Part shown: in pieces, positions 18,049 to 40,217 of the stretch
Numbering within the stretch: the first letter of the stretch is position 1
How the letters are laid out: the number at the start of each line of letters is the position of its first letter
Source: Escherichia phage vB_EcoM_VR7
Length of the DNA stretch: 64,000 bases
Strand: one strand, 5' to 3'
Sequence record: NC_014792.1
Translations under genes and position numbers: made by a program
The notes under the pieces: generated by a model
Told to the model about the DNA's origin: nothing
The model's database searches: none
The model's input: the letters and a program-made list of their open reading frames with translations, nothing else

Positions 18049-18235
18049 CAACGAAGATGGCTTTATCACCATTTGCATCAGTCACTTCATAAGTGTCTTC
18101 ATGATACAACGGAATAATCCAGGTAACACCATCATCAGCAATAACATGGATTGCTTCTTGGTCTTGCGACACGATTTCATATTCTTCAAAAATCTCGAAT
18201 ACGGAAATCTTAGAGCCCGTACACATTGCACTCAT
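18044..18235 (-). CDS. hypothetical protein
   Basis: 63 aa acidic ORF. Confidence 0.4.
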   Translation of the reverse strand: MSAMCTGSKISVFEIFEEYEIVSQDQEAIHVIADDGVTWIIPLYHEDTYEVTDANGDKAIFVV

Positions 18236-18431
18236 ATTGTTCCCTTCTTTTAATCAGTTGGCGATGTGCCTTTTTAAGCTTACGAATCTGACGTTTGGTT
18301 GGTCGTGCAACGTAAGCTTGTGTAGTTACTCGTCCGAAAACTCCATACTTGGGAGACGGAGTATCAATGAAGACTTCCCATTGACAAGAGTAGCTATATG
18401 TTGCTTTAGAAAATTGAGTTAAAACAAACAT
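18210..18431 (-). CDS. small basic protein, RPTKRQIR-motif family
   Basis: 73 aa; ARPTKRQIRKLKKAHRQ shared with 19587..19883 and 40041..40217. Confidence 0.5.
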   Translation of the reverse strand: MFVLTQFSKATYSYSCQWEVFIDTPSPKYGVFGRVTTQAYVARPTKRQIRKLKKAHRQLIKRREQYECNVYGL

Positions 18432-18432
18432 A

Positions 18433-18792
18433 TTAACCTCGTTTCATGAAGGCATTAAAAATCTGGTCGTCAATAGCAATAGACTGTTCTTGAGCTTTGG
18501 CCCAAACCCCTTCCAGAATGTCATTCGCTTCAGTAGATATCATGACCCCAATTTCAGGATTTCCAGTTATCCAGATTGCGCAATCGCGCACATTCTTTTT
18601 ATCAAATGGATATCCACGAGTATCTTCATAAGGTCCATCCATTACCATAAATGAGCGAGCCTTTATGATAAAATCATCTTTAACGATAATATAACCAATC
18701 GCCTGATTAAACCGAGGCTCACGAAATTCATAATGAGCATTACCATCATTATTGCTGACCAGTTCAAAATCCAGAAAATTATAATAACTCAT
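18433..18792 (-). CDS. hypothetical protein with duplicated C-terminal cassette
   Basis: 119 aa; ends AIDDQIFNAFMKRG; about 45 nt DNA repeat at 3' end. Confidence 0.5.
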   Translation of the reverse strand: MSYYNFLDFELVSNNDGNAHYEFREPRFNQAIGYIIVKDDFIIKARSFMVMDGPYEDTRGYPFDKKNVRDCAIWITGNPEIGVMISTEANDILEGVWAKAQEQSIAIDDQIFNAFMKRG

Positions 18793-18840
18793 ATTAATCT
18801 CGCTTCATAAAGGCATTAAAAATTTGGTCGTCAACTGAAT
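18433..18840 (-). repeat. about 45-nt direct repeat at the 3' ends of two adjacent genes
   Basis: 18433..18480 and 18790..18840 are roughly 85% identical, covering the last 11 codons, the stop and the next start codon. Confidence 0.55.
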
Positions 18841-19231
18841 AAACGGGGGTTTCCAGAATTTTCAAAAGACTGTTTTTGATGTACTTGCTAGGGATACTTG
18901 CATTAATAACATCATCAACTAATTCGCTGTTGTGATTAATATTGTTGAATTCAAACCCTTCAAATGTTACTTTATGAGGAACACCCCCAGAAAACAGATG
19001 TGTCAATTCAATCATTGTATTACGCGTAAGCGGTTTGGTTACCATTTTAGGGAAATCTTTCCACTGATTTAATTCTTTGTTAAGAAGTTTATGAGCAAAT
19101 ACAATTCTATCATCACTATCAACAAGAAAATAACCCAGATATTGAATCTCGTCGCTCCAAAACACCCTGTAGGCCTGTGCATTTGGATTTTTACAACGAA
19201 GTTTTTTGATAACCAAATTTCTGTTAATCAT
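18794..19231 (-). CDS. hypothetical protein with duplicated C-terminal cassette
   Basis: start moved to MINRNL (AGGTGA RBS); ends SVDDQIFNAFMKRD. Confidence 0.5.
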   Translation of the reverse strand: MINRNLVIKKLRCKNPNAQAYRVFWSDEIQYLGYFLVDSDDRIVFAHKLLNKELNQWKDFPKMVTKPLTRNTMIELTHLFSGGVPHKVTFEGFEFNNINHNSELVDDVINASIPSKYIKNSLLKILETPVYSVDDQIFNAFMKRD

Positions 19232-19232
19232 T

Positions 19233-19526
19233 TTATTCACCTGTAACTTCTTTGACGATGTTTTCATTTTCAAAGTTAGGGTCACAATACAACACGTAAT
19301 TATACTGCATAACCCCACCAGATGCCAACTGGTCAGATACTTCTTTGACCTTGTTTAGTTGGTCACGTTTAGTGATGTTCATGATGTCCGCGTAAATCTG
19401 GTGTTCAACTGCTTCCTGGTCAGCGGTCATTGACCACTCACAAAGGTCTTTATCATAACCAGCGGTAACTGGAGCTGCGTGACATGAAGCGAGGACTAAG
19501 ATTGCTGCGATAGATAACTTTTTCAT
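19233..19526 (-). CDS. sp: spackle periplasmic protein
   Basis: 97 aa; signal peptide; GYDKDLCEWSMTADQ and GGVMQYNYVLYCD recalled from T4 Sp. Confidence 0.7.
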   Translation of the reverse strand: MKKLSIAAILVLASCHAAPVTAGYDKDLCEWSMTADQEAVEHQIYADIMNITKRDQLNKVKEVSDQLASGGVMQYNYVLYCDPNFENENIVKEVTGE

Positions 19527-19554
19527 TTGAATCTCCTTAGTAGTTGATGGGATA

Positions 19555-19583
19555 ATATTAAATCATTATTATCCCGTTGTACA
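19555..19583 (-). promoter_or_regulatory. early promoter cassette
   Basis: TGTACA-N17-TAATAT then TATCCCATCAACTACTAAGGAGATTCAAATG. Confidence 0.55.
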
Positions 19584-19586
19584 CAC

Positions 19587-19883
19587 TTATTTTACTTTAG
19601 CGTAATCTAAAGTCACTAACTGCGGTTCCATTGCCAATTGACGTTGACGACGGAGGACTGATGCACGGACATACACGCGAAATGCCTTTTTGCATTGGCG
19701 AATCTGACGCTTAGTTGGACGAACATCAAATTCATAGAATTCTACAAAGTCCATTTGTCCCTTGGTTTGTTGAGAAATAATAAGTTCCCAACGACTGTTT
19801 ACGCGGTCTGCATAAAACTTGTGCTTACCAAAAGACTTGTCCCAAAAACCACTTTTTACGGGTTTCATAATTTGAATAATCAT
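19587..19883 (-). CDS. small basic protein, RPTKRQIR-motif family
   Basis: 98 aa; VRPTKRQIRQCKKAFR. Confidence 0.5.
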   Translation of the reverse strand: MIIQIMKPVKSGFWDKSFGKHKFYADRVNSRWELIISQQTKGQMDFVEFYEFDVRPTKRQIRQCKKAFRVYVRASVLRRQRQLAMEPQLVTLDYAKVK

Positions 19884-20212
19884 TTTTCACCTTCCACAGA
19901 TTGACCAGTCATTTTGTAATATTCTTCGCGAGCATTATATAACGCAAATTCAATATCGCTGATGCAAATTTCTTCATTTTCCAGTTGAGATTCAACTGCC
20001 AGGATTAAACTACGTAGGGCTGCACCTTTACGTAAATCAATTTTATGATGACATTTTCCATTAACAAATGCTTCTACCTTGGCGTTGTGTGTATCCGCAG
20101 TTTTGTGTGCATACCAATGAATCCCAGCAGGATGTAATGACACTACACGATTATAAGCTGGAAAACCCAACGGGGTGATAACCAGAGTCACTTCAACTTT
20201 ATCAGTAATCAT
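19880..20212 (-). CDS. hypothetical protein
   Basis: 110 aa coupled ORF. Confidence 0.5.
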   Translation of the reverse strand: MITDKVEVTLVITPLGFPAYNRVVSLHPAGIHWYAHKTADTHNAKVEAFVNGKCHHKIDLRKGAALRSLILAVESQLENEEICISDIEFALYNAREEYYKMTGQSVEGEK

Positions 20213-20415
20213 TTTGTTTCCTCACTACGCCAATCTGATTCAAAAACTAGATTATCACCAACAAATGCTTTAACTAACGCATTATTAACTTCAGCAAATT
20301 GTGAAGTGACCCACTGGATTTGGTCTTTATCGGATACGTCCAGAGTCATTTCTTTAGTAAACATATTACCATTTTCAAACCAACCAATAAACATAACTTT
20401 GGCTAAATTTCCCAT
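20209..20415 (-). CDS. dmd: Dmd, antitoxin against RnlA/LsoA-type mRNA endonucleases
   Basis: 68 aa; VMFIGWFENGNMFTKEMT...QWVTSQFAEVNNALVKAF matches recalled T4 Dmd. Confidence 0.75.
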   Translation of the reverse strand: MGNLAKVMFIGWFENGNMFTKEMTLDVSDKDQIQWVTSQFAEVNNALVKAFVGDNLVFESDWRSEETK

Positions 20416-20706
20416 TTAGATTTCCTCACAAAAGGCCCATTCAGCATGATAAACTGTTGCGCCAGGGGTTGCATTCATTTGAACCAAGTCTACAGGTGAA
20501 ATCACACGATATAGCTTAGGTTCTCCTCCAATTGAACGTGCTGCACGTCCAGCATAAATCTTCGCCAAACCAATGTCTTCAGTAAAGAACACGCGATTTA
20601 GATTTTTCTTACGACCAGTTTCTGACAGGACTCCAGTTTCTTCTGGAGGACAAAGCATGTTATTGATATTTGCCAGACTGCATGACCCATGATAGAAAGT
20701 TTTCAT
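20416..20706 (-). CDS. hypothetical protein
   Basis: 96 aa; first gene after an early promoter cassette. Confidence 0.5.
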   Translation of the reverse strand: MKTFYHGSCSLANINNMLCPPEETGVLSETGRKKNLNRVFFTEDIGLAKIYAGRAARSIGGEPKLYRVISPVDLVQMNATPGATVYHAEWAFCEEI

Positions 20707-20732
20707 TTTATTCTCCAGTAGTTGATAGGGTC

Positions 20733-20761
20733 ATTATACTATAAAGAAAAGGGGGTGTACA
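20733..20761 (-). promoter_or_regulatory. early promoter cassette, -35 inside a hairpin
   Basis: GGGGGTGTACACCCCC palindrome, then N17-TATAAT-GACCCTATCAACTACTGGAGAATAAAATG. Confidence 0.55.
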
Positions 20762-20774
20762 CCCCCTTTATCAC

Positions 20775-21077
20775 TTATGCCAACTCATAATTGTGCATTG
20801 TCAGACAACGAATTTTTCCAGTAGTTGGGTGCATAACAGTCACACTAATTGTGCAATCATCACACACGTTAACAAAAGGTTCCGCGATAACAAATACTTC
20901 ACCGCCTGCCAACAGATACTCACGAAGGCTTGAGCGAACCGCTGAAGGGTGAACATCGCTTTTGAGCTTTATTAATTTACCGGTTTGAATGCCAGATGCG
21001 ATAAGAGCAGCACAGGTTTCATCACGGCGAGCGAATTGTCCAAAGTAGTAACGATTCATGTCGGTTTGATTAAACAT
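20775..21077 (-). CDS. hypothetical protein
   Basis: 100 aa. Confidence 0.5.
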   Translation of the reverse strand: MFNQTDMNRYYFGQFARRDETCAALIASGIQTGKLIKLKSDVHPSAVRSSLREYLLAGGEVFVIAEPFVNVCDDCTISVTVMHPTTGKIRCLTMHNYELA

Positions 21078-21128
21078 ATGGTTTTCCTTTTTAGTGGGTT
21101 GGTTTATTGTGTAACTCAGTATGGAATC

Positions 21129-21157
21129 ATTATGCCCTAGTAGAATTCAGTTGTACA
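21129..21157 (-). promoter_or_regulatory. early promoter cassette (GATTCCATACTGAGTTAC class)
   Basis: TGTACA-N17-CATAAT-GATTCCATACTGAGTTAC. Confidence 0.55.
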
Positions 21158-21164
21158 CCCCTTT

Positions 21165-21195
21165 TTAAAATAAAAAAGGACCCGAAGGTCCTTGT
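21165..21195 (-). terminator. UUCG-tetraloop terminator downstream of gp41
   Basis: aggacc-cgaa-ggtcct with A/T runs. Confidence 0.6.
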
Positions 21196-22634
21196 TAGAA
21201 TTTCATCTGTGCCGCAAGGTCGTCCAGGTCGCTCCTGTTGACCCTGGTTTGTCTATTCATTTCAGCCTGACGATTCATCTCACCAGTGGCTTCTTTCACC
21301 GTAGGGCCTTGTTTAGGAGCTGAATCATCATCAACCTCATACCAGCGCTGATTACCTTTCTTAACACCCATCTTGAATTTATTATAGTAGTTCTTATCGC
21401 CATAACGAGACTTAAGCTGTTTGATTAACTGCAGTCCCATTTGAGCGAATTCTTCGGTCTCAACAACACCCAACATAAAGTCAGCCGTGTGCGCAATACC
21501 AAAGGATTCTGCGATGTCAGCCATGTCAATCTCAGCTGCAACGTTCGCGCCCCTGGTTGTCTGTGCTGCAGTCCACAGGACCACATTTTTCTCGACCGCC
21601 AGACCACGAAGTTCTTCTGCAACCATCTTAATCAGGCCGTAACTGTTTTCGGTAAACGTTTTCAGTCTTGAGCTTGCGCAGATTGCCAGGTAGTCAACAA
21701 TAATCACATCCGGTACAAATCCTTGCTTCAGTTTGTACTCGTTCAGTAATGCACGGAAGGTATCCGCATGCGCACCCCCAGTTGGATATTGTTTTATCTT
21801 CAGAGTCCCGAGAGTCCCGGAAGCGCGCCATTTTTCCATTTTACTTTTGTATTCTGCCCATGATATATGACCTTCATCAATATCATCCAGAGATACATCC
21901 AGCAAGTTGGCATCAATACGTTTGGCACATACTTCTTCAGCCATTTCCATGCTTATATAAAGAACATTATGGCCAGTCTGAAGATAGTCAGCAGCTAACG
22001 AACAAAGTCCCAGAGATTTACCAACGTTTGTCCCGGCCAGTAAAACGTTCTCTGTTCCATACTCAACTCCGCCCTTCGTGATTTTATTCAGGATGTTAAT
22101 ACGGAACGGAACTTTCTTCGATTTGTTTAGATAAGTCTGGAATCGAGCTTCGTAATCGTTTAACCAGTCATGACCCAGAGCAGAGTCAAAACAGATAGAC
22201 AATGCATCGCGCATGATGTCAGGGATAGCACCAATATCCGGGATTCGTTTATCACGTTTATCTTTCGGAAGTTCGGCATTACTCTGAATTTCGATAATCC
22301 TGGATGTTGCATTGAACATCGCAGATTTCTGCACATACTTCTCGGTTTCTTTAACCAACCATTCCTGGTCTTCTGGAGTATCAGCCAGGACTCCTAAAAG
22401 TTTCTTTGTGCCTTCATATTCAACTTCAGAAAGGTCAGAACCGTCGAGTGCGATATCAAGTGCAGTCTTAGTTGGAACTGCTTGATATTCTTTTACATGT
22501 TCGTTAATCGTATTAAAAAGGGTCTTCGCAGGACCCTTTTCAAAATATGTGTTATTCAGATATGGCCAGACTTTAACAAAATATTCCTTGTTAAAGAGTA
22601 GCTGGGATAAAATAGTTTCTACCACTTCCACCAC
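21195..22634 (-). CDS. 41: replicative DNA helicase (DnaB-like)
   Basis: 479 aa; Walker A AGTNVGKSLGL; track start is likely GTG; strong resemblance to recalled T4 gp41. Confidence 0.9.
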   Translation of the reverse strand: MVEVVETILSQLLFNKEYFVKVWPYLNNTYFEKGPAKTLFNTINEHVKEYQAVPTKTALDIALDGSDLSEVEYEGTKKLLGVLADTPEDQEWLVKETEKYVQKSAMFNATSRIIEIQSNAELPKDKRDKRIPDIGAIPDIMRDALSICFDSALGHDWLNDYEARFQTYLNKSKKVPFRINILNKITKGGVEYGTENVLLAGTNVGKSLGLCSLAADYLQTGHNVLYISMEMAEEVCAKRIDANLLDVSLDDIDEGHISWAEYKSKMEKWRASGTLGTLKIKQYPTGGAHADTFRALLNEYKLKQGFVPDVIIVDYLAICASSRLKTFTENSYGLIKMVAEELRGLAVEKNVVLWTAAQTTRGANVAAEIDMADIAESFGIAHTADFMLGVVETEEFAQMGLQLIKQLKSRYGDKNYYNKFKMGVKKGNQRWYEVDDDSAPKQGPTVKEATGEMNRQAEMNRQTRVNRSDLDDLAAQMKF

Positions 22635-22963
22635 CTCTTTTTCATTTTAATCTTATCAATTTCATCTTGTATTTGCATTGTAACACACTTTTCTACATGC
22701 ACTGCAAGCTCCGCTTTGCGGTCTTCAGAAGGGGTGCCGAAATCAACTGAAACTTTTCCAGATGGTTCAATTTTAATTCCGGTTACGTACACAATGTGAC
22801 TGGACCCATCGGGAAGTGATAACAGAATTTCCTGTCGTACAGTTCCCATGGATTGCCGGATAATCTCCAAACTTTTTTCGTAGTAAGGTACAGAAGGAGC
22901 CTTAGCTCCCTCCGCATCTTTCTCGAAATTATCTAAATCAGATAAATCGATATCATTCATCAA
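22619..22963 (-). CDS. hypothetical protein in gene 40 position
   Basis: 114 aa between uvsX and gp41; C-terminal KKRWWKW; position only. Confidence 0.45.
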   Translation of the reverse strand: MMNDIDLSDLDNFEKDAEGAKAPSVPYYEKSLEIIRQSMGTVRQEILLSLPDGSSHIVYVTGIKIEPSGKVSVDFGTPSEDRKAELAVHVEKCVTMQIQDEIDKIKMKKRWWKW

Positions 22964-24131
22964 GGTCTTCCATCATATCTAAATCGTTTTCGATATCTGC
23001 CGCAGATGGTTTTGTCTTACCTACCGGAGCAGAGTATTTTTCAACCTTGGAGGCAATAAGCTCATCAACTTCGGCATCAACAACAGCATTGCTATCGATT
23101 GCACCCAGCTGGTAATGACGTTTGATTGCATCACGGAAAGGTTCGTGCTTGAACAGTGGGCCCCAGAATTCGGTGCAGTTGGTATCTTTTGCGCGCCATG
23201 ATTTTTCTTCGCGGACCATTTCACCGGTCTCAACATCAAGATATTCACGGTTATACCAACCAACTTTCGGTTTCACCACAAATCCGATTTCCATTGCCAT
23301 ATCAAGCAGGCCAGAATACGGGTCAATACCCCCATCAAATTTTACATCAATGAAGAATTTGCTTTTCTCTTTGACCATACGAGATTTTTCGGCGTTCAGA
23401 ACAAATTGGAAACCTTCCAACTCTTTACCAGTTTCTTTAATCTGGCGTTTACCGATAATGAATACGGTGTCCGCAGAATACATAACACCTGTACCACCAG
23501 TCATAACGGTTTTGCTATACATCTCAATCGTCTCGATTGTATGGTTAACCGCGACACAAGGAATATCCTTGATACTAAAGAACGGGGTTACAATACGGAA
23601 CAGAGATTTCAGGGATTTAGCACGAGTCATATCGCCGACGACTTTTTCGTTCAATGCATCTTCTGTTTCTTTTTTCGATGCCATGTTACCGATTGAGTCA
23701 ATAAAGATAATGACTTTTTCGCCACGCTCAATTGCTTCAAGCTGGTTAACCATATCAACTTTCAATTGTTCAACCGACTGGATTGGTGTATGAATAACAC
23801 GTTCCGGGTCTACTTTCATTGCACGAAGATATGCTTCTGTGATACCAAATTCTGAATCATAGAACAAACAGATTGCTTCGGGGTATTTGTTCATATATGC
23901 AGAGACCATCGTTAAACCCATATTGGATTTAAAGTGTTTTGACGGACCAGCAAAAATAGTCAAACCTGACTGCATACCACCATCTAGTGCACCGCTGATT
24001 GCAATGTTCAGCATCGGGATTTTTGTACGAACTACATCTTTATCATTAAAGAACTTGGACTTGGTAAGAGTCGCGGTCATTTTGGATGTAGAAGCTTTAA
24101 TCAAACGGGATTTCAAATCTGCAATAGACAT
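22953..24131 (-). CDS. uvsX: UvsX recombinase (RecA-like)
   Basis: 392 aa; Walker A GPSKHFKS; RecA-like core. Confidence 0.9.
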   Translation of the reverse strand: MSIADLKSRLIKASTSKMTATLTKSKFFNDKDVVRTKIPMLNIAISGALDGGMQSGLTIFAGPSKHFKSNMGLTMVSAYMNKYPEAICLFYDSEFGITEAYLRAMKVDPERVIHTPIQSVEQLKVDMVNQLEAIERGEKVIIFIDSIGNMASKKETEDALNEKVVGDMTRAKSLKSLFRIVTPFFSIKDIPCVAVNHTIETIEMYSKTVMTGGTGVMYSADTVFIIGKRQIKETGKELEGFQFVLNAEKSRMVKEKSKFFIDVKFDGGIDPYSGLLDMAMEIGFVVKPKVGWYNREYLDVETGEMVREEKSWRAKDTNCTEFWGPLFKHEPFRDAIKRHYQLGAIDSNAVVDAEVDELIASKVEKYSAPVGKTKPSAADIENDLDMMEDLDE

Positions 24132-24210
24132 TCATTTTTTCCATAGGCACCATTATATTTTTCTCACAGGTTTAAGATAGGATAATTATATCACTGTATT
24201 TTTAGAGCAA

Positions 24211-24339
24211 TTAACGATTGAATCCACGATTAATTGCACGTTCAACAATCTTCCGGGTCTGACGTTTGTCCCACCAGTACATAAAGCCAATACCAAATGC
24301 AGACAACAGCCATAGACTAATCAATAGCATACCAATCAT
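24211..24339 (-). CDS. small membrane peptide
   Basis: about 42 aa, MIGMLLISLWLLSAFGIGFMYWW...; approximate. Confidence 0.3.
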   Translation of the reverse strand: MIGMLLISLWLLSAFGIGFMYWWDKRQTRKIVERAINRGFNR

Positions 24340-24372
24340 AATATTTTTCTCTCGGTTGTTTAGAAATTAATG

Positions 24373-24876
24373 TTAGTTAATACCTTGACGAGCTTTCTCT
24401 TTAGCTACACATTTATTAATATAGCTCAGACGGTTTTGAGCAGAACGCTGATACATATCGCGATACTCATTAGCCTTAGGAGAACCCGTCTCTGCTGCCT
24501 GATAAGCTTCCGCACGCATGATGTTTATCTGCATATTGATGTATGACATGCAGACCTGTGAAATCTGGTTAACAGTATCCAGGTCATTTTGTCGCTTGGT
24601 TTCTGCTTCCAGTTTGGCAATGATTTCGTCATGCTTCGCAGCTTGTTCGCGTTTGTACTCAATTTCACGTTGAGCATATTTTGCGCAATTGTTTCCACAT
24701 TGATTATTGGCGCGTTTGTAGATAAGTCCAGTGCCACCTTTGAAATCAAAGGAACCATTATGCACCTGACGGTCTGCAGCAATTCGCGCTTTACCAATCT
24801 CACTGGCATTAACTACATCACCCTGGTAAGCACAACCAGATAGCAGCATAACAGCTGCGATAGCTAACTTTTTCAT
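24373..24876 (-). CDS. putative lipoprotein
   Basis: start moved to MKKLAIAAVMLLSGC (lipobox); occupies the beta-gt/42 slot. Confidence 0.5.
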   Translation of the reverse strand: MKKLAIAAVMLLSGCAYQGDVVNASEIGKARIAADRQVHNGSFDFKGGTGLIYKRANNQCGNNCAKYAQREIEYKREQAAKHDEIIAKLEAETKRQNDLDTVNQISQVCMSYINMQINIMRAEAYQAAETGSPKANEYRDMYQRSAQNRLSYINKCVAKEKARQGIN

Positions 24877-24884
24877 TTTATTTC

Positions 24885-25028
24885 CTAATTGAAACATTCA
24901 TAACGGGCTTGGAGCCCCAAAAATACCCAACCCAAAATTAAAGTTGGAACCATATGCGGAGTCATTATTGCCCAATAGATTGACATACTAAAAAATGCAA
25001 TCAGTACAATAATTGTAATTATCTTCAT
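24885..25028 (-). CDS. small membrane peptide
   Basis: about 47 aa, MKIITIIVLIAFFSMSIYW...; ATGA overlap with upstream stop; approximate. Confidence 0.3.
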   Translation of the reverse strand: MKIITIIVLIAFFSMSIYWAIMTPHMVPTLILGWVFLGLQARYECFN

Positions 25029-25267: not shown

Positions 25268-25312
25268 TTTAATATCCTCAAGTTTGTCTAGTCATCAGTA
25301 GTTGATGAAAGA

Positions 25313-25341
25313 ATAATACGGCAATCCATTGCCGTTGTAAA
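25313..25341 (-). promoter_or_regulatory. early promoter cassette
   Basis: TTTACA-N17-TATTAT then TCTTTCATCAACTACTGATGA. Confidence 0.5.
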
Positions 25342-25344
25342 CAC

Positions 25345-30306: not shown

Positions 30307-30309
30307 TTA

Positions 30310-31461: not shown

Positions 31462-31466
31462 TTCAA

Positions 31467-31718: not shown

Positions 31719-33387
31719 CTTTTTTCATCTGGAGATGTTGCCCGTATGCTTCCGGGTCATGGTCTCGGTGACTGATAATAAAGATGTTGGTGTCTTCCAA
31801 TTTGTTCAGGATGGTAGCAATTGCTTTAACACCCTCTACATCAGTAGCTGAATCGAAAACTTCGTCCAGAATCAATGTGTTTATATTGACACCAGATACT
31901 TTCGCAGCAATATCACGCCATGTAAACAACAATGCAATATCGATACGAGCTTTTTCACCCTGGCTAAATGATGCATAGCTAAAGTCTTCACGCCCACGAG
32001 ATTTAATTGTTTCGTTGAATTCTTCATCAAGCGTAAAACTATAATCAGCTTCCATAACTTTCAGATAAGCATTAATTTGCTTATTAAAGATAGGAATATA
32101 TTTCTTAATAATCGCGCCTTTGATTCCAGAATCTTTCAACATATCCGTTAAGATACCACGTTGATATTTTTCCATAACAAGGTTTGATTTCTGTTTGACT
32201 ATTTTATCAAGCTGGTCTTGAAGCGTTTTAATATCATCGGCATGGTCAATGAATTCAGACTTAGCTTGTTCAATTAACGTCTTAACCTTTTTAGCTTTAT
32301 CCACAGTCTGGATTAACGTTTGTTTCTTAGTTTGAATCTCTTGAGCTATTGTACGTTGGTTTTGTCTTGCTTCAGCGTACGCATCAAATCGCTCCTGAAT
32401 GGAGGCCTGGAGAGCTTTATGGCTATCAGACTCACGATTATACTCTTCAATCTTTGTCTCAATTCTGGGGACTATGGAGTCTCCTGGCGACAATTGACTC
32501 AAACACGTTTGGCAACAACCGCCTTTCTCGTACAAACCGATTACTTTACGGAAGCTATCGATTTTCGATTTAATCAGGAAAGATTCTTGCTTGACTTTCG
32601 TCAGTTCCTGTTCAGGGTCTTCACCCAAAATAATTTCGGTCAATCTTGTCGTTGCTTCATCAATCGTTGATTTGATATCACGTGCTTCTGAAGCCAAATC
32701 ATCATACATCGTTTGCAACCGCAGCAGATTATCACCTGATAATTTTTTCTGCTTTTCAACGTTGTCCTGGTAGATTTTAATCTGTTGCACAACACCATCA
32801 TGCTGAACATCAATCACCTGGATTTGGCTATTGACTTCGCGGATAAGAGATTTGTTCAGCTTATCCATATCAGCCAGTACAGAAACCTCTAACAGGTCTT
32901 CGACAAGTTTTCTTCTTGCAGGAGTGGATAGGCCCATGAAAGGGGTATATCCAGCTGTGCCGAGTACGACAATCTGTTTGAAACTGGCGTATGACATTCC
33001 GATAAGCTGTTCAAATTCTGCTTGGAAATCTTTACTGCTGGCAGATTCATCAAGACGTTCACCGCCACAAGAGATTTCAAAAACATTGGGTTTTTGCCCG
33101 CGTTTGATATAGTATTCTTTGCCATCATATTCCATCCACAATTCAACGAGCATATCTTTTTTGTTGCTCGAGTTAATCAACTGCCCTTTCTTAACATCAC
33201 GAAAAGGCTTACCAAACAATGCAAATGTAACGGCTTCAAGGAACGTAGATTTCCCTGCACCGTTCTTTCCGGTCACCAGAGTTTTCTGAACCTTATCGAG
33301 TTGAACCGTAATTGCTTGCGCTCCAACTGACATGATATTTTTATAGATAACTTTTTTAAGCTTAAAAGTCTTCATCGTAATAAGCAT
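31693..33387 (-). CDS. 46: recombination nuclease subunit (SbcC/Rad50-like)
   Basis: 564 aa; Walker A GKNGAGKST; coiled-coil middle; CxxC hook-like CCQTC. Confidence 0.9.
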   Translation of the reverse strand: MLITMKTFKLKKVIYKNIMSVGAQAITVQLDKVQKTLVTGKNGAGKSTFLEAVTFALFGKPFRDVKKGQLINSSNKKDMLVELWMEYDGKEYYIKRGQKPNVFEISCGGERLDESASSKDFQAEFEQLIGMSYASFKQIVVLGTAGYTPFMGLSTPARRKLVEDLLEVSVLADMDKLNKSLIREVNSQIQVIDVQHDGVVQQIKIYQDNVEKQKKLSGDNLLRLQTMYDDLASEARDIKSTIDEATTRLTEIILGEDPEQELTKVKQESFLIKSKIDSFRKVIGLYEKGGCCQTCLSQLSPGDSIVPRIETKIEEYNRESDSHKALQASIQERFDAYAEARQNQRTIAQEIQTKKQTLIQTVDKAKKVKTLIEQAKSEFIDHADDIKTLQDQLDKIVKQKSNLVMEKYQRGILTDMLKDSGIKGAIIKKYIPIFNKQINAYLKVMEADYSFTLDEEFNETIKSRGREDFSYASFSQGEKARIDIALLFTWRDIAAKVSGVNINTLILDEVFDSATDVEGVKAIATILNKLEDTNIFIISHRDHDPEAYGQHLQMKKVGRFTVME

Positions 33388-33625
33388 CCTTGATGCAAGA
33401 TTCTGCCATATGAATTAATGTCTCTGGTGTATCATCTTCCATTACATTAAAGCTAAATTCTACAGCCCAATCAGTGACTACATAGACTTTGATAAGTTGA
33501 CCGGTTTCCCGGTCAGTAATAGCTTCAAACCAATACTTAATCGTATTCGGTTGGTTATCATCGTCAACCACATCACATTCGCGGATATGTTCAAGACACG
33601 CTTCATTAAAATCATAAAGTCTCAC
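33362..33625 (-). CDS. hypothetical protein
   Basis: 87 aa between gp47 and gp46. Confidence 0.5.
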   Translation of the reverse strand: MRLYDFNEACLEHIRECDVVDDDNQPNTIKYWFEAITDRETGQLIKVYVVTDWAVEFSFNVMEDDTPETLIHMAESCIKDAYYDEDF

Positions 33626-34641
33626 GGTTGCACCTCAAGGTATAATTTGTTGGCCAATGCTTTAAGAGCTTTTGATTCTTTTTCATTGGCATCAGGTAAT
33701 GCATCGATATATTCTGCCATCATATCCGTTAAGCGTTTTATGTCTAGCTCTTCATCTGCATCTGTTGTGTCTACACTATTGTCAACCTTATTGACAATAC
33801 GCAAGTCATGCACGCGCTTTTCTAATTCAGATTCAAACTTGGTCAGTTCTTTATCGACTTTTTCTACAATAACACGGACTGATAAGTCTTTGAAGTCGTC
33901 GTAGTTAATAGTTTCGTTTGGATAGAAAATCTTCCGATGCCAGGTGGTTTCATTCGGAATAAATTTCATCTCTTCGGTTTCGGTATTAAATTCCCAGAAC
34001 CCGCGAGGGTCGTTCTCATCGCCTGCTGTTAATGTCCATGGTGTACCGATGTACTTAACGTTTGCAGCTTCTGAAATGGTATGGAAGTGTCCAGACCAAA
34101 CTTGCTTGTACTTCTTAAGGAAATCAGGCTCAAGCCCGTGTGATTTCAATCCTTTGTAGAAATAAAACCCGGTTAATTCCCAGTGACCGATGCAATATTC
34201 AGCGCCAGAGGTTTTGATGTGGTCATGAATAGCTGTCGCGTTCTCATCACACATCCATGGAATCATATCAATCTGACAGCCGTCAAAATCAACAGTCGTT
34301 GGCTTATCGTAGATTTTAACATGGTCATACTTATTCAGAAGTTCGGTGATAGCGTTAGGATGAATCTTATTCTTTAGATTCATGTCATGGTTCCCGATTA
34401 TCGTGTGCAGAGTAATTCCTGCTTCACGAAGGAGTTCCATAATCTCACGGCTGAATTCCATCGTCTTATGCGTCACGGCCTTACGGACATCAAAGATATC
34501 ACCGTATTGAATCCAGACTTTAATTCCATTCGCCTTAGAATATGCAATCGCCTGTAAAATACCATCGCGTTGAATGTTTTGAGCCCATGGGTCGTCAGCT
34601 TTGACACCCAAGTGCCAATCACCTAAATTTAAAATTTTCAT
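33622..34641 (-). CDS. 47: recombination nuclease subunit (SbcD/Mre11-like)
   Basis: 339 aa; metallophosphatase motifs LGDWHLG, GNHD. Confidence 0.9.
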   Translation of the reverse strand: MKILNLGDWHLGVKADDPWAQNIQRDGILQAIAYSKANGIKVWIQYGDIFDVRKAVTHKTMEFSREIMELLREAGITLHTIIGNHDMNLKNKIHPNAITELLNKYDHVKIYDKPTTVDFDGCQIDMIPWMCDENATAIHDHIKTSGAEYCIGHWELTGFYFYKGLKSHGLEPDFLKKYKQVWSGHFHTISEAANVKYIGTPWTLTAGDENDPRGFWEFNTETEEMKFIPNETTWHRKIFYPNETINYDDFKDLSVRVIVEKVDKELTKFESELEKRVHDLRIVNKVDNSVDTTDADEELDIKRLTDMMAEYIDALPDANEKESKALKALANKLYLEVQP

Positions 34642-34684
34642 ATACTCTCCTCAGTTGGTTCATTTTATCATCCCGATTATAAAG

Positions 34685-34712
34685 CAAAAAAGGAAGCACT
34701 AGGCTTCCTTTC
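34685..34712 (-). terminator. hairpin with U-run upstream of gp47
   Basis: aggaagc...gcttcct stem followed by TTTTTTGC on minus strand. Confidence 0.45.
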
Positions 34713-34958
34713 CAATTAATACACCATACAGAGGTTCATGAGAAGACTTGAACTTGATGGTTTTATAGGTAATAGTACCTTCATTTTCTGCTTTAATACG
34801 AGCGGCTTCAAATTGAAGCATCATCTCATTTTTGTCAGATTTAATCTTATCAAAATCCGTCGAACTCGTCATTCATACGCCCTCTTAAACCTTTTCGTAT
34901 TCGTCGTTCAAGCTATTAAAAATCCGGATGTTCGTCATTCATTAACCTTCTCCAAATC

Positions 34959-35162
34959 CTACCAGCGTTTCCACCATTTTTTAAGCTGGTGTGAATCAAC
35001 CCACACCTTCGCTACTGGCTCAATCTGAAAAATACCGTCAGAATACTGGTCAATCATTTTGTATTCGGTTTCAGTCTGCTTAATACAGATATTACCATAT
35101 GAGCGAAGTCTGAAAGCGGCTCCAACAAGAAGCCGTTTAAAAGGTTTATTTACTAATGCCAT
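34959..35162 (-). CDS. hypothetical protein
   Basis: 67 aa. Confidence 0.4.
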   Translation of the reverse strand: MALVNKPFKRLLVGAAFRLRSYGNICIKQTETEYKMIDQYSDGIFQIEPVAKVWVDSHQLKKWWKRW

Positions 35163-35457
35163 TTACGATTTCCCAAATTTGCTTGCGAGTAGTTTCCCAC
35201 ATCAACTTAATCAGGTCTTCCGTAACTGGTTGGCGGTAAATTCCACGCAGTTTAACTAAAGCATATTTGTATGCTTCAAAATTGTTTTCCAGCACTGCCC
35301 CTTGAGCATGCTTATTCAGTCGTTCAATTTCACGAGCATTCTTTTTCAGAATCTTTGCTGCTTGGATGGTTGCTTCGAGTGCGTTCGCTTCTTCGAGACG
35401 TTCCTGTGCTTCTTCAATCTGCTTATCGGTCAGTTGAGAAATATCTGGAGCTTGCAT
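35146..35457 (-). CDS. hypothetical protein
   Basis: 103 aa helical ORF. Confidence 0.5.
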   Translation of the reverse strand: MQAPDISQLTDKQIEEAQERLEEANALEATIQAAKILKKNAREIERLNKHAQGAVLENNFEAYKYALVKLRGIYRQPVTEDLIKLMWETTRKQIWEIVNGISK

Positions 35458-35458
35458 A

Positions 35459-35710
35459 TTAATCCTTGGGAGTTAACTCAATTGTAAAATATAGATTAGC
35501 ATTATCCACATGATAACGGTAATCAACGTTATTATCCGGTGAAGTAAATTCCAGATTCCGGACGTTTAAAGGGTCGATATCAATTGGAAGACCTTTTATG
35601 TCTCGCAGATAAAGTTTAATGAAATATGGGAGCGCTGTAAAGTCTTCCTCGATTTTATCTAAAAAATCGGTAATATCAAATTGATGTTCCATATAAAAAA
35701 TCCAAATCAC
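35459..35710 (-). CDS. hypothetical protein
   Basis: 83 aa; start codon ambiguous (GTG in track). Confidence 0.4.
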
Positions 35711-36233
35711 CCTCTTTATCCTTGGCGCTCTTATCAGACCCTGGCGCTTTAACTAAGGAGGATTCGTACTGTGTCATTTTGTCATAGATGTCCTGGATAA
35801 ATGTTTCGTCAGCCAGAGCCACCATATCGTCGTCACGTGAATCATACACGTTATGGACGAAGTAGCTATATTTCTTTGCCATTTCTTTACGTTCTTTTTT
35901 GATACGCTGAACGAAAGCATTGAAGCAAGCCATTGTTATGTAAGCATGTGGATTATCGTATTTTGTTTCGTCGAAGTTATGAAGACCTTTTATTGCGGCC
36001 TCAATTCCGTCCGCTATCATTTCCTGCTTCCAAGATTGGGTATATCCTGAAAAGTTGAAACGTTTAGACAGACCTTCGGCTATAAGCATAATTGCCAGAC
36101 CAATAACATCGTTCTGGCGAATAATTTTATTTGGGTCGGTGTTCGCATTCAGCTTCTGTTTCCACTCCGAAATAGCTTTCAGAAGCTCTTTATTATTTAC
36201 ATAGTTATTCTTGGTTAATTTAATTTCGTTCAT
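35676..36233 (-). CDS. 55: late sigma factor
   Basis: 185 aa; [42 protein letters not shown] recalled from T4 gp55. Confidence 0.9.
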
Positions 36234-36256
36234 ATCGCCTCACTTAGTATATGAAT

Positions 36257-36290
36257 ATTATATCATCCTTGATACAAAGCGTTAGCGAAG
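36257..36290 (-). promoter_or_regulatory. candidate middle-type promoter (GCTTT box near -30, TATAAT at -10)
   Basis: AACGCTTTGTATCAAGGATGATATAAT upstream of gp55; near-identical element at 45755..45790. Confidence 0.35.
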
Positions 36291-36548
36291 TAAACAGTAA
36301 GCCTGGAAGACCTTCTCCATAATTGCCTTAAATTCGTGGATGTCAATATAAGGGATAACCTCAGCATCACTAATGAATTCCATCAGCCGGTCATGCTCGT
36401 TGTGGTATTGACCTTCATTCAACATGCTGATATGAGATTCCCAGGAGCCATACCCTTCTGCGTGTGGGAAGAATGTTATTTTCATGAATTCATCCACCCA
36501 AAACGTTCCCAGGTCCTGGACGGATATCATTGTATGATTGATGTGCAT
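36282..36548 (-). CDS. hypothetical protein
   Basis: 88 aa. Confidence 0.45.
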   Translation of the reverse strand: MHINHTMISVQDLGTFWVDEFMKITFFPHAEGYGSWESHISMLNEGQYHNEHDRLMEFISDAEVIPYIDIHEFKAIMEKVFQAYCLLR

Positions 36549-36814
36549 CAGTGCACCAATTGGGCAGCTTCTAAAACATCATCAAGCTTATCAAACTGGT
36601 CAACATAATCAATCCCACCAACTTCATCTTTGGCATACAACCAATACTGCTTGAATTCATATTCAATAATAAAGTGGTCGCCTTCAATCTGGAGGACACC
36701 AACATCATTAAATTGAACTGCGTAACCCGTAAAGCGGGTATCATTCAGGAGTTCTTCTTTCATAGTAATCATTTCCAGGTTTTTCTCATAATGAGAGAGT
36801 TTAATTTTAATCAT
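36548..36814 (-). CDS. hypothetical protein
   Basis: 88 aa. Confidence 0.45.
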   Translation of the reverse strand: MIKIKLSHYEKNLEMITMKEELLNDTRFTGYAVQFNDVGVLQIEGDHFIIEYEFKQYWLYAKDEVGGIDYVDQFDKLDDVLEAAQLVH

Positions 36815-37070
36815 TTAAGTAGTCCAGGAATTCGTCTAATGTCATGCCTTCTCCCCAAGCTTCCCAAGCATCGATTTTAGTGTACTTGGTTTTAGTGCGC
36901 ATAGGATAGATTCTGAATTCATATCCCATTGAAATGAAATAATTTAAAGTCCTTTGTAAATAGTAACCGTGACTAATTTTATGAGCTCGGCGAATTCCAT
37001 TAGCATACTTATGTTTGTAGGATACTATTACCGCAACACCTTCAGGTAATTCAATAGCAGGACACATCAT
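36807..37070 (-). CDS. hypothetical protein
   Basis: 87 aa. Confidence 0.45.
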   Translation of the reverse strand: MMCPAIELPEGVAVIVSYKHKYANGIRRAHKISHGYYLQRTLNYFISMGYEFRIYPMRTKTKYTKIDAWEAWGEGMTLDEFLDYLND

Positions 37071-37411
37071 TTTACGCCCTTAACAATTTTCAGGTCAACA
37101 AAACCTTTCTTGCGCTGGGAATTCATACGCTTGATGGCTTTGTCAGAAACTTCTTTGTTTTCACGTGGGAGCGGCAGACCAAACGCTACTACATCGAATT
37201 CGTTCAGGATATACTGAACAAGGCTTTCACGAATACGCGCTTTACCCATTGTCTGACCTTCTGCAATAATCAACTTCTGTACATCGCCTTCCCACTGGTC
37301 CAGAATCTCAGGGGTAACAAAACCAGATTTCATCAGAGTGTTAACTTTAGCAAATGCGAAATTAGCGATGATGTTAGTGATAGATGCAGTCATGATATAT
37401 TCCTCAGTCAA
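37067..37411 (-). CDS. hypothetical protein
   Basis: 114 aa. Confidence 0.5.
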   Translation of the reverse strand: MTEEYIMTASITNIIANFAFAKVNTLMKSGFVTPEILDQWEGDVQKLIIAEGQTMGKARIRESLVQYILNEFDVVAFGLPLPRENKEVSDKAIKRMNSQRKKGFVDLKIVKGVK

Positions 37412-37436
37412 TTAAATTAAAATTTTATTATCCTTG

Positions 37437-37458
37437 GGGTCATTATACCATGACCCCG
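37437..37458 (-). terminator. 8-bp hairpin GGGGTCAT...ATGACCCC
   Basis: perfect inverted repeat between two genes; TATAAT sits inside the loop region. Confidence 0.4.
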
Positions 37459-37465
37459 TTGGTTT

Positions 37466-37663
37466 TTACTGCGCTTTAGCGGCTTTCCATCCTTCATACA
37501 TCATTGCGACGGATATTAATATTGCTCCTGAACAGCTTGAATATTTGTGATTCCAAAACCAGTTCAGAAAAACTTCGTCATCAATACCTTGGGCCATCAT
37601 ATTTTCAAAGAACTGACGACGAGCTTCGGCAATTCGCTGCGATAATTTAGATTCAGGATTCAT
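37466..37663 (-). CDS. hypothetical protein
   Basis: start moved to MNPESKL immediately after upstream stop. Confidence 0.4.
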   Translation of the reverse strand: MNPESKLSQRIAEARRQFFENMMAQGIDDEVFLNWFWNHKYSSCSGAILISVAMMYEGWKAAKAQ

Positions 37664-37664
37664 T

Positions 37665-37796
37665 TTAAATTTTCCAATTGCCATTTTCATCAATGAATTT
37701 AATCCAGTCATTTACTGACCACTTAGTTGTATCACCCTTTGGAGTAACATTTAAAGTGTATAACCCCTGCTTAAAAAACATTCGTTTGATATTCAT
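37665..37796 (-). CDS. small hypothetical protein
   Basis: start moved to MNIKRMFF with GAGGAAA RBS; about 43 aa. Confidence 0.35.
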   Translation of the reverse strand: MNIKRMFFKQGLYTLNVTPKGDTTKWSVNDWIKFIDENGNWKI

Positions 37797-37803
37797 ATTT
37801 TCC

Positions 37804-38097
37804 TCAGCTATAACGGTAACATTCATTTGATTTACGCTTTGCAACACGATGAGAAGTATTATAATCAAAATCATCCTCAACGTACACATCTTTTTTCAAC
37901 TGACGAACTTCTTTACGCAGTTGACGATTCATCTCATTCTTAACTTCTGAATCAACACCACGCATACGCTTCCATTTGTCTGAACGGAAGATATTTTCTT
38001 CAACTTGTTCCTGACTTACACCATCAGGCGCCTGACGACGCCCTGAATAATAAAAATCTTTTACAGACAATTCTTTGCGACGAATAGTTTTACCCAT
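37804..38097 (-). CDS. hypothetical basic protein
   Basis: 97 aa; GAGGTAAC RBS. Confidence 0.5.
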   Translation of the reverse strand: MGKTIRRKELSVKDFYYSGRRQAPDGVSQEQVEENIFRSDKWKRMRGVDSEVKNEMNRQLRKEVRQLKKDVYVEDDFDYNTSHRVAKRKSNECYRYS

Positions 38098-38099
38098 AG

Positions 38100-38354
38100 T
38101 TACCTCAGCAGTTTGTATCCAATAAGATTTTTGATATACTGAATATCTTTGATACCCAAATCCAACTTAAGGTCTTTCAGACGTTCACTCAGGGTCAAAA
38201 AGGTTACGTGCTTCCAATTCTTCACTGGGCAACAATAAGTCTTAGGACCATTTGCAATTTCAATATTCTTATCAGTGACGGTGAGAAAAATCAGACGCTC
38301 ATCATCCAGATTAAGGGTAATGACATTTTTCATTGCGTGTAATTTCAGTCTCAT
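38100..38354 (-). CDS. hypothetical protein
   Basis: 84 aa. Confidence 0.45.
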   Translation of the reverse strand: MRLKLHAMKNVITLNLDDERLIFLTVTDKNIEIANGPKTYCCPVKNWKHVTFLTLSERLKDLKLDLGIKDIQYIKNLIGYKLLR

Positions 38355-38533
38355 AATTTAGGTCCTTTTGCAACTGTATTGAACAAGCTACGGTCACACA
38401 CCATCAACGGAGCATCAGGCCATTTCAAAGGACGATACCATACATCTTGGTCAGTCACTTTGGTTACCTGTACAGGATAGCCATTTACAGAATAATACCG
38501 GTCAACTTTAATTTCTTTATCTTGAATAACCAT
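38351..38533 (-). CDS. hypothetical protein
   Basis: 60 aa; first gene after an early promoter cassette. Confidence 0.45.
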   Translation of the reverse strand: MVIQDKEIKVDRYYSVNGYPVQVTKVTDQDVWYRPLKWPDAPLMVCDRSLFNTVAKGPKL

Positions 38534-38554
38534 TTTGTTTTCCTCATCAGTAGT

Positions 38555-38583
38555 TGATGGGATAATGATACATCATTCAAAGG
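38555..38583 (-). promoter_or_regulatory. early promoter cassette
   Basis: TGTACA-N17-TATCAT-TATCCCATCAACTACTGATGAGGAAAACAAAATG; -35 lies in a hairpin loop. Confidence 0.55.
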
Positions 38584-38595
38584 GGCTTGTACACC
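38565..38595 (-). terminator. hairpin AAAGGGG...CCCCTTT
   Basis: stem encloses the TTGTACA -35 element; downstream of 38601..38918. Confidence 0.45.
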
Positions 38596-38600
38596 CCTTT

Positions 38601-38918
38601 TTAATCTTCAATTAAGTCCTGGTCATACCCCAGGGATATCAGTTTTGTTTTAAAGGCAGGAATATTGGTCATTTTTTCATCATTGACAAAAATCACCGGG
38701 TAGCGAATGTTAAGGGTAGGATATCCAGCACGCTTAGCCAGAGACACGATTAAAGGCCTGTCATAAGCGATTTCAGAGCCTTGTTTGTTAAGGACTGAAT
38801 AGAATGTATAAGGAAGGTTTAAGGAGCCCAGAAGGCTCCTGACGTACATACAACCAGGACACCGCCCGACTTCTTCGGGAATGCCATAGATTTCAATTTT
38901 AGTCGAGTTTTGGCCCAC
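38601..38918 (-). CDS. glutaredoxin/NrdH-like redoxin
   Basis: 105 aa; CPGC active-site motif in IYGIPEEVGRCPGCMY. Confidence 0.55.
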   Translation of the reverse strand: MGQNSTKIEIYGIPEEVGRCPGCMYVRSLLGSLNLPYTFYSVLNKQGSEIAYDRPLIVSLAKRAGYPTLNIRYPVIFVNDEKMTNIPAFKTKLISLGYDQDLIED

Positions 38919-39198
38919 AGGAAATTACTCCTTGGTAGTTCCAGGTTTTAATAACTTCTTCATCACTGGTAGTTTCATACGGAATGTAAACCTGTATAAG
39001 GAAACCAGTGTCATCGAAAGAGAAATAAACTGTCGGTTTGATTCCATGAATCTCGGATTGAGCATAGATATCTTTAAGGTCTTCTTCCTTATCAGCAAAG
39101 AATTCCGGGTTCAGGTCACAGTCATGGAAGTACCATTCATCACCAAACTTGTCCCATGCGGTCCAATTAGTAGCTACATATTCTTCAAAACGTTTCAT
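38899..39198 (-). CDS. hypothetical protein
   Basis: 99 aa. Confidence 0.45.
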   Translation of the reverse strand: MKRFEEYVATNWTAWDKFGDEWYFHDCDLNPEFFADKEEDLKDIYAQSEIHGIKPTVYFSFDDTGFLIQVYIPYETTSDEEVIKTWNYQGVISCGPKLD

Positions 39199-39446
39199 TC
39201 TTTCACCTTCAGCATTTTTGCAATGGTATTATGAATAGCCTGGATTCTTTTGTTGAATTCAGAGCTTTCGAGGCCAGGATTAGTGCTTAACCAACCGATG
39301 ATAACAAACAGCAAACCAAACGGGATGGCCAGAATAAGCAGACAAACGATGAACAACACAAGCGTTATATTTGCCAGGATATCTGCCACCGCATTGCGAA
39401 AATTATTCATTAGAAAGGTCCTGTATTGGTTACGAGGAATAGCCAT
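39195..39446 (-). CDS. small membrane protein
   Basis: 83 aa; hydrophobic LVLFIVCLLILAIPFGLLFVIIGWL. Confidence 0.45.
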   Translation of the reverse strand: MAIPRNQYRTFLMNNFRNAVADILANITLVLFIVCLLILAIPFGLLFVIIGWLSTNPGLESSEFNKRIQAIHNTIAKMLKVKE

Positions 39447-39531
39447 TGAGAAGGATACTCGTCACCCATCAATCGTATTAAATTGTTTATAGCTTCGCCA
39501 ATACAATACACAATAATTCCATAAAAATTAA

Positions 39532-40005
39532 TCATTTAAGCGATTTCCTCAGTTGTTTTTTAAATGAAGCTTGTAGTTTAGGCTTCGTATCAGATTCATT
39601 ATAAGTCATGCCGTTCAAAAGCATTTCCTGAATCATTTCTTCTTTCCCCAGGCGACCGAACTCTTTGGCTTTGTCTGCCACAAAATTGGGGTGAATATTG
39701 TTTTCGGTATAATCAGATTTCAGATAGACAAGCAAACTCTCTAACCATTCCAGGTAGTCAACATTGCGACCTTTCAGACCCGAGCGGCTGAACTTATGCT
39801 TCATTTGTCCTTCTGTTCCATTGCACAGATTGCATAGTAACCCACGAACTTTACCGGCTTTTGGCCCGTTCAATTCGTGGTCATGGTCAAGATGGTTGGC
39901 CTGAACATCGGAGTCCAAATCACGGTGGCAAATTGGACACTTACCAGCTTGTGCATCATAAAGTTTTTGTTTTTCTTCTTTGTATAATTTGCCAGTCAAC
40001 AACAT
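39532..40005 (-). CDS. 49: endonuclease VII (Holliday junction resolvase)
   Basis: 157 aa; near-identical to recalled T4 gp49 (MLLTGKLYKEEKQK...HLDHDHELNGPKAGKVRGLLCNLCN). Confidence 0.9.
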   Translation of the reverse strand: MLLTGKLYKEEKQKLYDAQAGKCPICHRDLDSDVQANHLDHDHELNGPKAGKVRGLLCNLCNGTEGQMKHKFSRSGLKGRNVDYLEWLESLLVYLKSDYTENNIHPNFVADKAKEFGRLGKEEMIQEMLLNGMTYNESDTKPKLQASFKKQLRKSLK

Positions 40006-40040
40006 AATAAACCCTTACCATTATTAGATAAGGGTATTTA

Positions 40041-40217
40041 TTAAATATTATAAAACGAGCGATGCAACCGTTTAAATTGTCGAATCATCTTTTTAGTAGG
40101 ACGAGTATATAATCCTACGCAGGTGACCATAAACCGGTCAGTAGGACTTCCTTTGATAAGAAGTTTCCAGACCTTACCACCATTTAACTTTTCGGTATAG
40201 ACTAATACAGTTTTCAT
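40041..40217 (-). CDS. small basic protein, RPTKRQIR-motif family
   Basis: about 58 aa, ...YTRPTKKMIRQFKRLHR...; below track cutoff; approximate. Confidence 0.4.
   Translation of the reverse strand: MKTVLVYTEKLNGGKVWKLLIKGSPTDRFMVTCVGLYTRPTKKMIRQFKRLHRSFYNI

Follow-up and report, generated by a model that had tools for sequence, protein, structure and literature searches.

The 64,000-nucleotide stretch of the genome of Escherichia phage vB_EcoM_VR7 analyzed here (record NC_014792.1, hereafter the window) contains three small open reading frames (ORFs), all on the minus strand, whose basic products share a motif and almost certainly belong to the family of TifA, or ToxN inhibitory factor A, the T4 gp61.4 protein (DUF7279) that inhibits the ToxN endoribonuclease (Guegler et al., PMC10853763). 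They are designated paralogs A (18210..18431, 73 residues), B (19587..19883, 98 residues, with a T4-like C-terminal tail) and C (40041..40217, 58 residues, a minimal member of the family). The motif reads RPTKRQIR in A, where it comprises the helix cap and the first basic residues (R43-R50, 18282..18305, minus strand). Pattern scan and alignment place it, on the same strand, in B (RPTKRQIR, R55-R62, 19698..19721) and in C (RPTKKMIR, R39-R46, 40080..40103), and its form common to the three proteins is RPTK(R/K)xIRxxK(K/R)xxR. An initial annotation had reported three ORFs with a common basic motif, and on this point it was right: all three lie where it had placed them, and the pattern RPT[KR][KR].[IVLM]R has exactly three matches in the six-frame translation of the window, all of them in A, B and C.

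The similarity between the three proteins is, judged from these comparisons, real and far beyond chance, because the pattern found three times in the window was absent from 200 shuffles of it and because pairwise BLASTP alignments of A, B and C are significant (expect values, E, of 1e-6, 1e-6 and 3e-5, over 42-52 residues). The initial annotation had kept in mind that the similarity might lack statistical support or be a low-complexity artefact. A chance or low-complexity resemblance between unrelated small ORFs is favoured by the proteins being short and basic, and plant copia polyproteins with “ARPTKKHLxAVKRIFRYL” illustrate that the motif alone may recur through chance or convergence. This explanation is nevertheless refuted, and its probability is close to nil: the helix segments have an entropy of 2.9-3.5 bits over 18 residues, which is not low-complexity, matches to the Pfam profile lie 33-48 bits above its gathering score and cover both the sheet and the helix, orthologs are conserved across genera under purifying selection, and the two modelled proteins, A and C, give the same predicted fold.

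The profile in question, Pfam PF23945 (DUF7279, 53 positions, gathering score 24.5 bits), matches A with 72.4 bits (E 2.7e-20, residues 9-59), B with 57.9 bits (E 9.6e-16, residues 25-69) and C with 60.9 bits (E 1.1e-16, residues 7-56), and T4 TifA (72.7 bits) and RB69 TifA (63.0 bits) match it over the same profile positions. When compared directly with T4 TifA by BLASTP, B gave 51.6 bits (E 3e-15, 42% identity over 72 columns) in an alignment that includes the C-terminal tail, where LVTLDYAKV of B faces FVTCDYAEI of T4 TifA; A gave 45.8 bits (E 2e-13, 41% identity over 49 columns), and C an E of 4e-5 (33% identity over 45 columns). Among other T4-like genomes, tblastn searches with A and with B both led to gene 61.4, in T4, T2 and many Tequatroviruses. 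In PHROG, B falls into phrog_2375 (E 1e-30) and C into phrog_3272 (E 6e-34); B also matches weakly (E about 1e-3) two families of larger proteins, phrog_1188 (247 residues) and phrog_13612 (427 residues). No NCBIfam model matched A, B, C or T4 TifA.

The N-terminal regions, initially described as unrelated, proved to be homologous as well. An invariant Trp stands some 25 residues before the motif in all three proteins, which also share a hydrophobic strand pattern. The homology, like the Pfam domain, thus extends upstream of the motif and takes in the three-stranded sheet of the same domain. The residues equivalent to P53-R59 of TifA are P44-R50 in A, P56-R62 in B and P40-R46 in C; with respect to TifA K55/R56/R59, the three proteins have P, T, K and the Arg at +5 without exception, and K is followed by R or K. 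By this equivalence, the motif is the RNA-binding helix element of TifA, and as such was already explained. The initial suggestion that the basic helix could bind nucleic acid or a host protein thus fits the published TifA data, where the partners are RNA and ToxN, although the family itself had gone unrecognised. As an annotation-level result, the three “hypothetical proteins” can be named TifA-family proteins; their membership is a matter of homology and does not imply inhibition of ToxN.

A hidden Markov model of 62 family members found exactly three copies in the window, A, B and C, and no fourth. The same model found no fourth copy in the parts of VR25 that lie outside the window, VR25 being the closest complete genome and the one used for the search beyond it. 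This Gaprivervirus is 98.9% identical to the window, a segment of T4-like coliphage DNA, over the region tested. The offset between the two sequences is -902 at about 17 kb and +1055 at about 40 kb, a shift that implies about 2 kb of net insertions and deletions in between, and hence that the source phage has a related but distinct genome. Protein A is also 100% identical to a protein of phage TH41.

A word-indexed search recovered 20 close relatives, and a profile search of 1.84 billion representatives recovered 50 clusters. Long matches of the latter (309-937 residues) were rejected as non-homologous; they are tandem-repeat proteins or plant copia polyproteins, and only part of the profile is covered. 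The plant Ty1/copia polyproteins (P0054, P0057, P0061, P0066, P0067) carry “CARYQ(A/T)(R/K)PTKKHL(H/K)A(V/I)KR(I/V)FRYL”, which resembles the TifA helix motif with E of 1e-4 to 1e-3 and lacks the sheet part, probably a short-motif coincidence or convergence.

Predicted fold and modular divergence

The AlphaFold2 models of A and C bear out the expectation of a common structure, both having three strands and a C-terminal helix: strands 2-8, 17-26 and 30-40 and helix 46-62 in A (predicted local distance difference test score, pLDDT, 75.8), strands 2-9, 15-22 and 31-36 and helix 42-57 in C (pLDDT 81.6). A three-stranded sheet with a C-terminal helix is the fold published for TifA (PMC10853763), and, as far as the models go, A and C share it. 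The best structural matches in BFVD are family members, including proteins of EcS1 and PM2 that are listed as TifA homologs in Table S2 of PMC10853763. For the A model, Foldseek found nothing in the PDB at an E below 0.8, and a profile search of PDB sequences gave no match at all; as the TifA family is without a solved structure, the fold is not assignable to a known superfamily.

Two of the BFVD matches, A0A0K1LNJ9 (54 residues) and A0A0K1LN61 (75 residues), come from a single phage of another genus, Citrobacter phage Merlin. From predicted structures, Merlin appears to encode two TifA-like small proteins, which suggests that multi-copy TifA families may be common among T4-like phages. Beyond the helix, the C-terminal tails of the family comprise at least two conserved motif types. 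The first, Cys-containing and of the form “xHCDIIGL”, appears as “...SWEGIHCD(I/V)(I/L/M/A)G(L/M)” in P0017, P0021, P0024-26 and P0034, and A, which ends in EQYECNVYGL, shares this tail type. The second, “FVTxDYA” (“(F/L)VT(C/L)DYA”), is that of T4 TifA and B. RB69 TifA and C have no C-terminal tail.

At the DNA level, identity between the copies is 49-58% even across the motif region, with 11 nucleotides as the longest exact run, which rules out that the motif stems from a duplication or gene conversion of recent date. Judging by these values, the duplications that gave A, B and C are old, and the copies are anciently diverged paralogs. They have diverged in a modular way, with 52-72% identity in the helix and 9-31% in the sheet/loop when paralog types are compared, so that the helix is kept and the sheet/loop varies. 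Within a type, sheet/loop identity is 52-67%. This pattern matches the variability stated for the loop region of TifA, which has been placed at the ToxN interface and may set specificity (PMC10853763). Ratios of nonsynonymous to synonymous substitution rates (dN/dS) are 0.04-0.07 for A, 0.09 for B and 0.03-0.25 for C, and each gene is therefore under purifying selection.

These values bear on the idea of redundant dosage, in which the three genes would merely supply more of a single ToxN inhibitor. Copy number does matter for the family, since T4 escapes plasmid-borne toxIN through tandem amplification of dmd-tifA (PMC9391042). The present copies, however, are old by the identities given above, both in the motif region and in the sheet/loop, they are dispersed rather than in tandem, and A- and B-type proteins did not neutralise ToxN (PMC10853763). 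Redundant dosage is thus very improbable.

Co-residence of the types extends beyond the window. In phage JS98, the gene annotated 61.4 is of the B type and orf29 is of the A type, A-type and B-type genes likewise co-reside in ABTNLS3 and UGJNEcP3, and C-type genes are widespread, with matches of at least 60% identity in 271 phage records, Tequatroviruses such as PP01 among them. When the sequences in Table S2 of PMC10853763 were compared with ours, A was identical to “tifA_vB_EcoM_005” at 71 of 73 residues, B was essentially identical to “tifA_vB_EcoM_VR7”, whose differences look like errors of text extraction, and “tifA_JS98” was of the B type. By these sequence assignments, the clusters of published TifA homologs represent paralogs that reside together, three to a genome in this phage group. 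The word “paralog” is absent from PMC10853763 and PMC9391042, and TifA homologs are presented there as coming from different phages; the published panel should be taken for a mixture of paralogs that share a genome, not for a set of orthologs from different phages. What is new here is the three-copy arrangement, with a minimal C-type outside the island that holds the other two, and the family, the motif and its mode of action were already published. As A and B are near-identical to proteins already assayed, the novelty is modest.

RNA tethering as a proposed mode of action

TifA of T4 and RB69 binds the host toxin ToxN, and RNA is bound through a Pro-Thr-capped basic helix, with dissociation constants of 0.36-2.3 μM for RNAs of 15-45 nucleotides (PMC10853763). 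In the mutants P53A/T54A and K55A/R56A/R59A, RNA binding, ToxN co-precipitation and ToxN neutralisation are all lost, and ToxN is apparently trapped by TifA on cellular RNA, especially 16S rRNA (PMC10853763). In the explanation favoured here, A, B and C are small early-region proteins, each with a beta-sheet of three strands and, C-terminal to it, a basic alpha-helix capped by Pro-Thr. By analogy with TifA, the conserved helix would bind RNA and the variable sheet/loop face, with its own surface in each paralog, would recognise a host protein. This protein would then be trapped in an inactive ribonucleoprotein complex, as ToxN is by TifA. B is the positional equivalent of tifA, A and C are extra copies with other recognition surfaces, and the role of all three would most likely be counter-defence against different RNA-targeting host effectors (type III toxin variants, other RNases). 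We lean slightly towards this mechanism of RNA-tethering inhibitors with distinct targets, and infer accordingly that each protein binds RNA and has a separate target. The homology, the motif equivalence, the predicted fold of A and C, the selection and the gene context come from the present analysis; RNA binding and ToxN trapping by T4/RB69 TifA, and the failure of A- and B-type proteins against ToxN and TenpN, are taken from the literature.

The likeness to TifA is one of Pfam family, of Pro-Thr-capped helix with its mutagenesis-defined residues and of predicted fold (A and C), to which B adds the same genomic position and the same type of C-terminal tail. The differences are that one genome holds three diverged copies, against one in T4 (as checked in its first 50 kb), that identity to T4-type TifA is only 9-31% in the sheet/loop, which is proposed to determine specificity, that proteins near-identical to A and B neutralised no tested ToxN (5) or TenpN (1), and that C is a minimal 58-residue form located by pin and gene 49, outside the anti-toxin-antitoxin (anti-TA) island.

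Several points weigh against RNA tethering by the three proteins. Co-expressed proteins of 005 (A-type), VR7 and JS98 (both B-type) neutralised 0 of 5 ToxN homologs and 0 of 1 TenpN, and expression was confirmed for the 005 protein in these toxin tests (PMC10853763). RNA binding was measured for RB69 TifA only, by co-purification and fluorescence polarisation; the T4 TifA helix mutants were assayed only for lost ToxN co-precipitation; and TifA binds single-stranded and double-stranded DNA in vitro with an affinity similar to that for RNA (PMC10853763). We found no published experimental test of a C-type protein in the literature, and the pairwise similarity of C to T4 TifA is weak, at 23.9 bits. 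Finally, matches to the promoter-like consensus are about as frequent in shuffled sequence, hence at chance level, so that promoter-like sites near these genes count as hints only. Given the failure of A- and B-type proteins against the ToxN and TenpN tested, their targets would probably be other toxin variants or RNases.

That same failure, against all six toxins (PMC10853763), would also fit if A, B and C were general RNA- or ribosome-binding modulators, acting for example on 16S rRNA, mRNA stability or translation, with no specific defence-protein partner. ToxN inhibition by T4/RB69 TifA would then have arisen as a specialisation within a wider role in RNA binding. The RNA-binding helix is the only element strongly conserved across the paralogs, TifA binds RNA without ToxN and enriches 16S rRNA (PMC10853763), and other genes of mRNA metabolism, such as dmd, lie nearby. 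On the other hand, the conservation of the sheet/loop within each type, together with purifying selection, points to a specific surface rather than a mere scaffold, and three diverged copies are more easily explained by three partners than by one generic activity. We regard general modulation as unlikely, though a more serious contender than the other alternatives considered here.

The chemistry of the proteins (isoelectric points of 10.1-10.6, and a helix with 6-8 basic and no acidic residues) would suit small DNA-binding proteins, either nucleoid-associated or regulators of transcription, and the in vitro binding of DNA by RB69 TifA with RNA-like affinity (PMC10853763) goes in the same direction. 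When tested against the Cren7-type chromatin-protein profile (Pfam PF11520), C alone gave a match, which is far below the gathering score (E 0.18, 12.2 bits for a cut-off of 25). Against this explanation, the nucleic acid that co-purifies with TifA is RNase-sensitive and DNase-resistant (PMC10853763), and PDB searches linked the proteins to no solved DNA-binding protein, either by fold or by sequence. A DNA-binding function is accordingly rated as quite improbable, below general RNA modulation.

Coming back to RNA tethering, a more general and clearly more tentative version of it can be considered, in which DUF7279 would be a modular RNA-tether scaffold. A constant RNA-binding helix would be combined with a fast-evolving recognition sheet/loop, and Dhakavirus/Gaprivervirus would keep three versions, each trapping a different RNA-targeting effector on bulk RNA; the candidates include type III toxins (those of CptN type among them), further RNases of abortive infection and anticodon nucleases. 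If true, the “inactive” A- and B-type homologs and the C-type would inhibit defences not yet linked to a phage counter-measure. The question raised is why this phage group keeps three diverged, individually conserved copies. Should every copy act on a target of its own, the three genes would be ready-made probes for new pairs of host RNase defence and phage counter-defence.

Gene neighbourhoods and the pin fusion

The initial annotation had placed the three genes in different variable blocks. This holds for C, which lies about 20 kb away from the others, adjoins gene 49 (endonuclease VII) and is outside the anti-TA island, but A and B are about 1.1 kb apart in one block between genes 61 and 41. 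Translational coupling to the ORF upstream and a Shine-Dalgarno sequence are seen in all three genes: GAGG in A, with the ATG one base after the upstream stop, GAAGGTG in B, with an ATGA overlap, and TAATG overlaps with the upstream ORFs at C.

The dmd-tifA-sp-adfA region is called the anti-TA island (PMC9391042), and of the three genes only B lies between dmd and sp in this gene 41-gene 61 early region. B is the positional equivalent of T4 tifA, with the order dmd, 110-residue ORF, B and sp against dmd-61.4-sp in T4. The dmd gene (20209..20415, minus strand; Pfam Dmd E 4.8e-22 and VR25 annotation), encoding an antitoxin against RnlA/LsoA, is upstream of B and transcribed in the same direction, and spackle (sp; 19233..19526, minus strand; Pfam T4_Spackle E 1.4e-41) is directly downstream of B, as in T4. 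A is also within the dmd island, beyond sp and two AdfA-like ORFs and before the 61.1/61 genes.

These two ORFs, of 119 and 145 residues (18433..18792 and 18794..19231, minus strand), are directly upstream of A. Both end in (A/S)(I/V)DDQIFNAFMKR, their C-termini being identical at 11 of 13 positions, and they are otherwise dissimilar. DDQIFNAFMKR is the C-terminal motif of AdfA (T4 61.2, the anti-DarT factor), and the Pfam AdfA match of these ORFs is partial (profile positions 193-211 of 211) and below the gathering score. The pair looks like a split or duplicated AdfA-like pair sharing a short C-terminal peptide. The 96-residue ORF directly upstream of dmd (20416..20706, minus strand) has no Pfam match and is another candidate member of the island; one related phage record has a “nucleotidyltransferase” in this region, a label that may apply to it. 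Just upstream of this ORF, a promoter-like site (20761..20733) overlaps a terminator-like hairpin (20769..20748).

Among the neighbours, Dmd (T4 gp61.5) resembles the TifA-family proteins in being a small early phage protein of the same island that neutralises a host endoribonuclease toxin, and in T4 it is co-operonic with tifA. It differs in belonging to Pfam PF17587, with no sequence similarity to the TifA family, and in binding its toxin directly; it is not known to require RNA binding. AdfA is likewise a counter-defence gene product of the same island, with AdfA-like ORFs adjoining A, but it is of an unrelated family (PF23813) and targets a DNA ADP-ribosyltransferase system.

The third paralog, C, is the last gene of a unit formed by a pin-like ORF, a 90-residue ORF and C, just upstream of gene 49, and is followed by a hairpin (40035..40011). 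The unit starts with a truncated pin-like ORF of 59 residues (40489..40668, minus strand), which corresponds to the C-terminal part of the PinA peptidase inhibitor (Pfam Inhibitor_I24, E 1.9e-6, profile positions 88-136 of 136) and is preceded by a promoter-like TTTACA-17-TATAAT (40731..40703). PinA, the Lon protease inhibitor encoded by T4 pin, is linked to C in that the pin-like ORF is translationally coupled and probably co-transcribed with C; Inhibitor_I24 is, however, unrelated to DUF7279, and the link between them is one of adjacency and gene fusion, not homology.

This fusion was found by comparing the pin regions of T4 (MT984581.1, 46884-47369), PP01 (755-1377) and the window (40041..40668). 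PinA of T4 has 161 residues, and its Pfam domain ends at residue 141. The last residues of the protein itself, MIQQYKRLHQMFYNT, are those that end a C-type TifA paralog. In PP01, pin (148 residues) and the 58-residue gene are kept separate. Alignment of the T4 and PP01 DNA shows a clean 137-bp deletion in T4, which places the last 15 codons (MIQQYKRLHQMFYNT) of the 58-residue C-type gene in frame behind the PinA domain. Laboratory T4, as seen in its first 50 kb, has thus lost the C-type paralog and kept a piece of its helix as the C-terminus of PinA. In the window, pin is instead cut down to the 59-residue ORF, and the 90-residue ORF lies between it and C.

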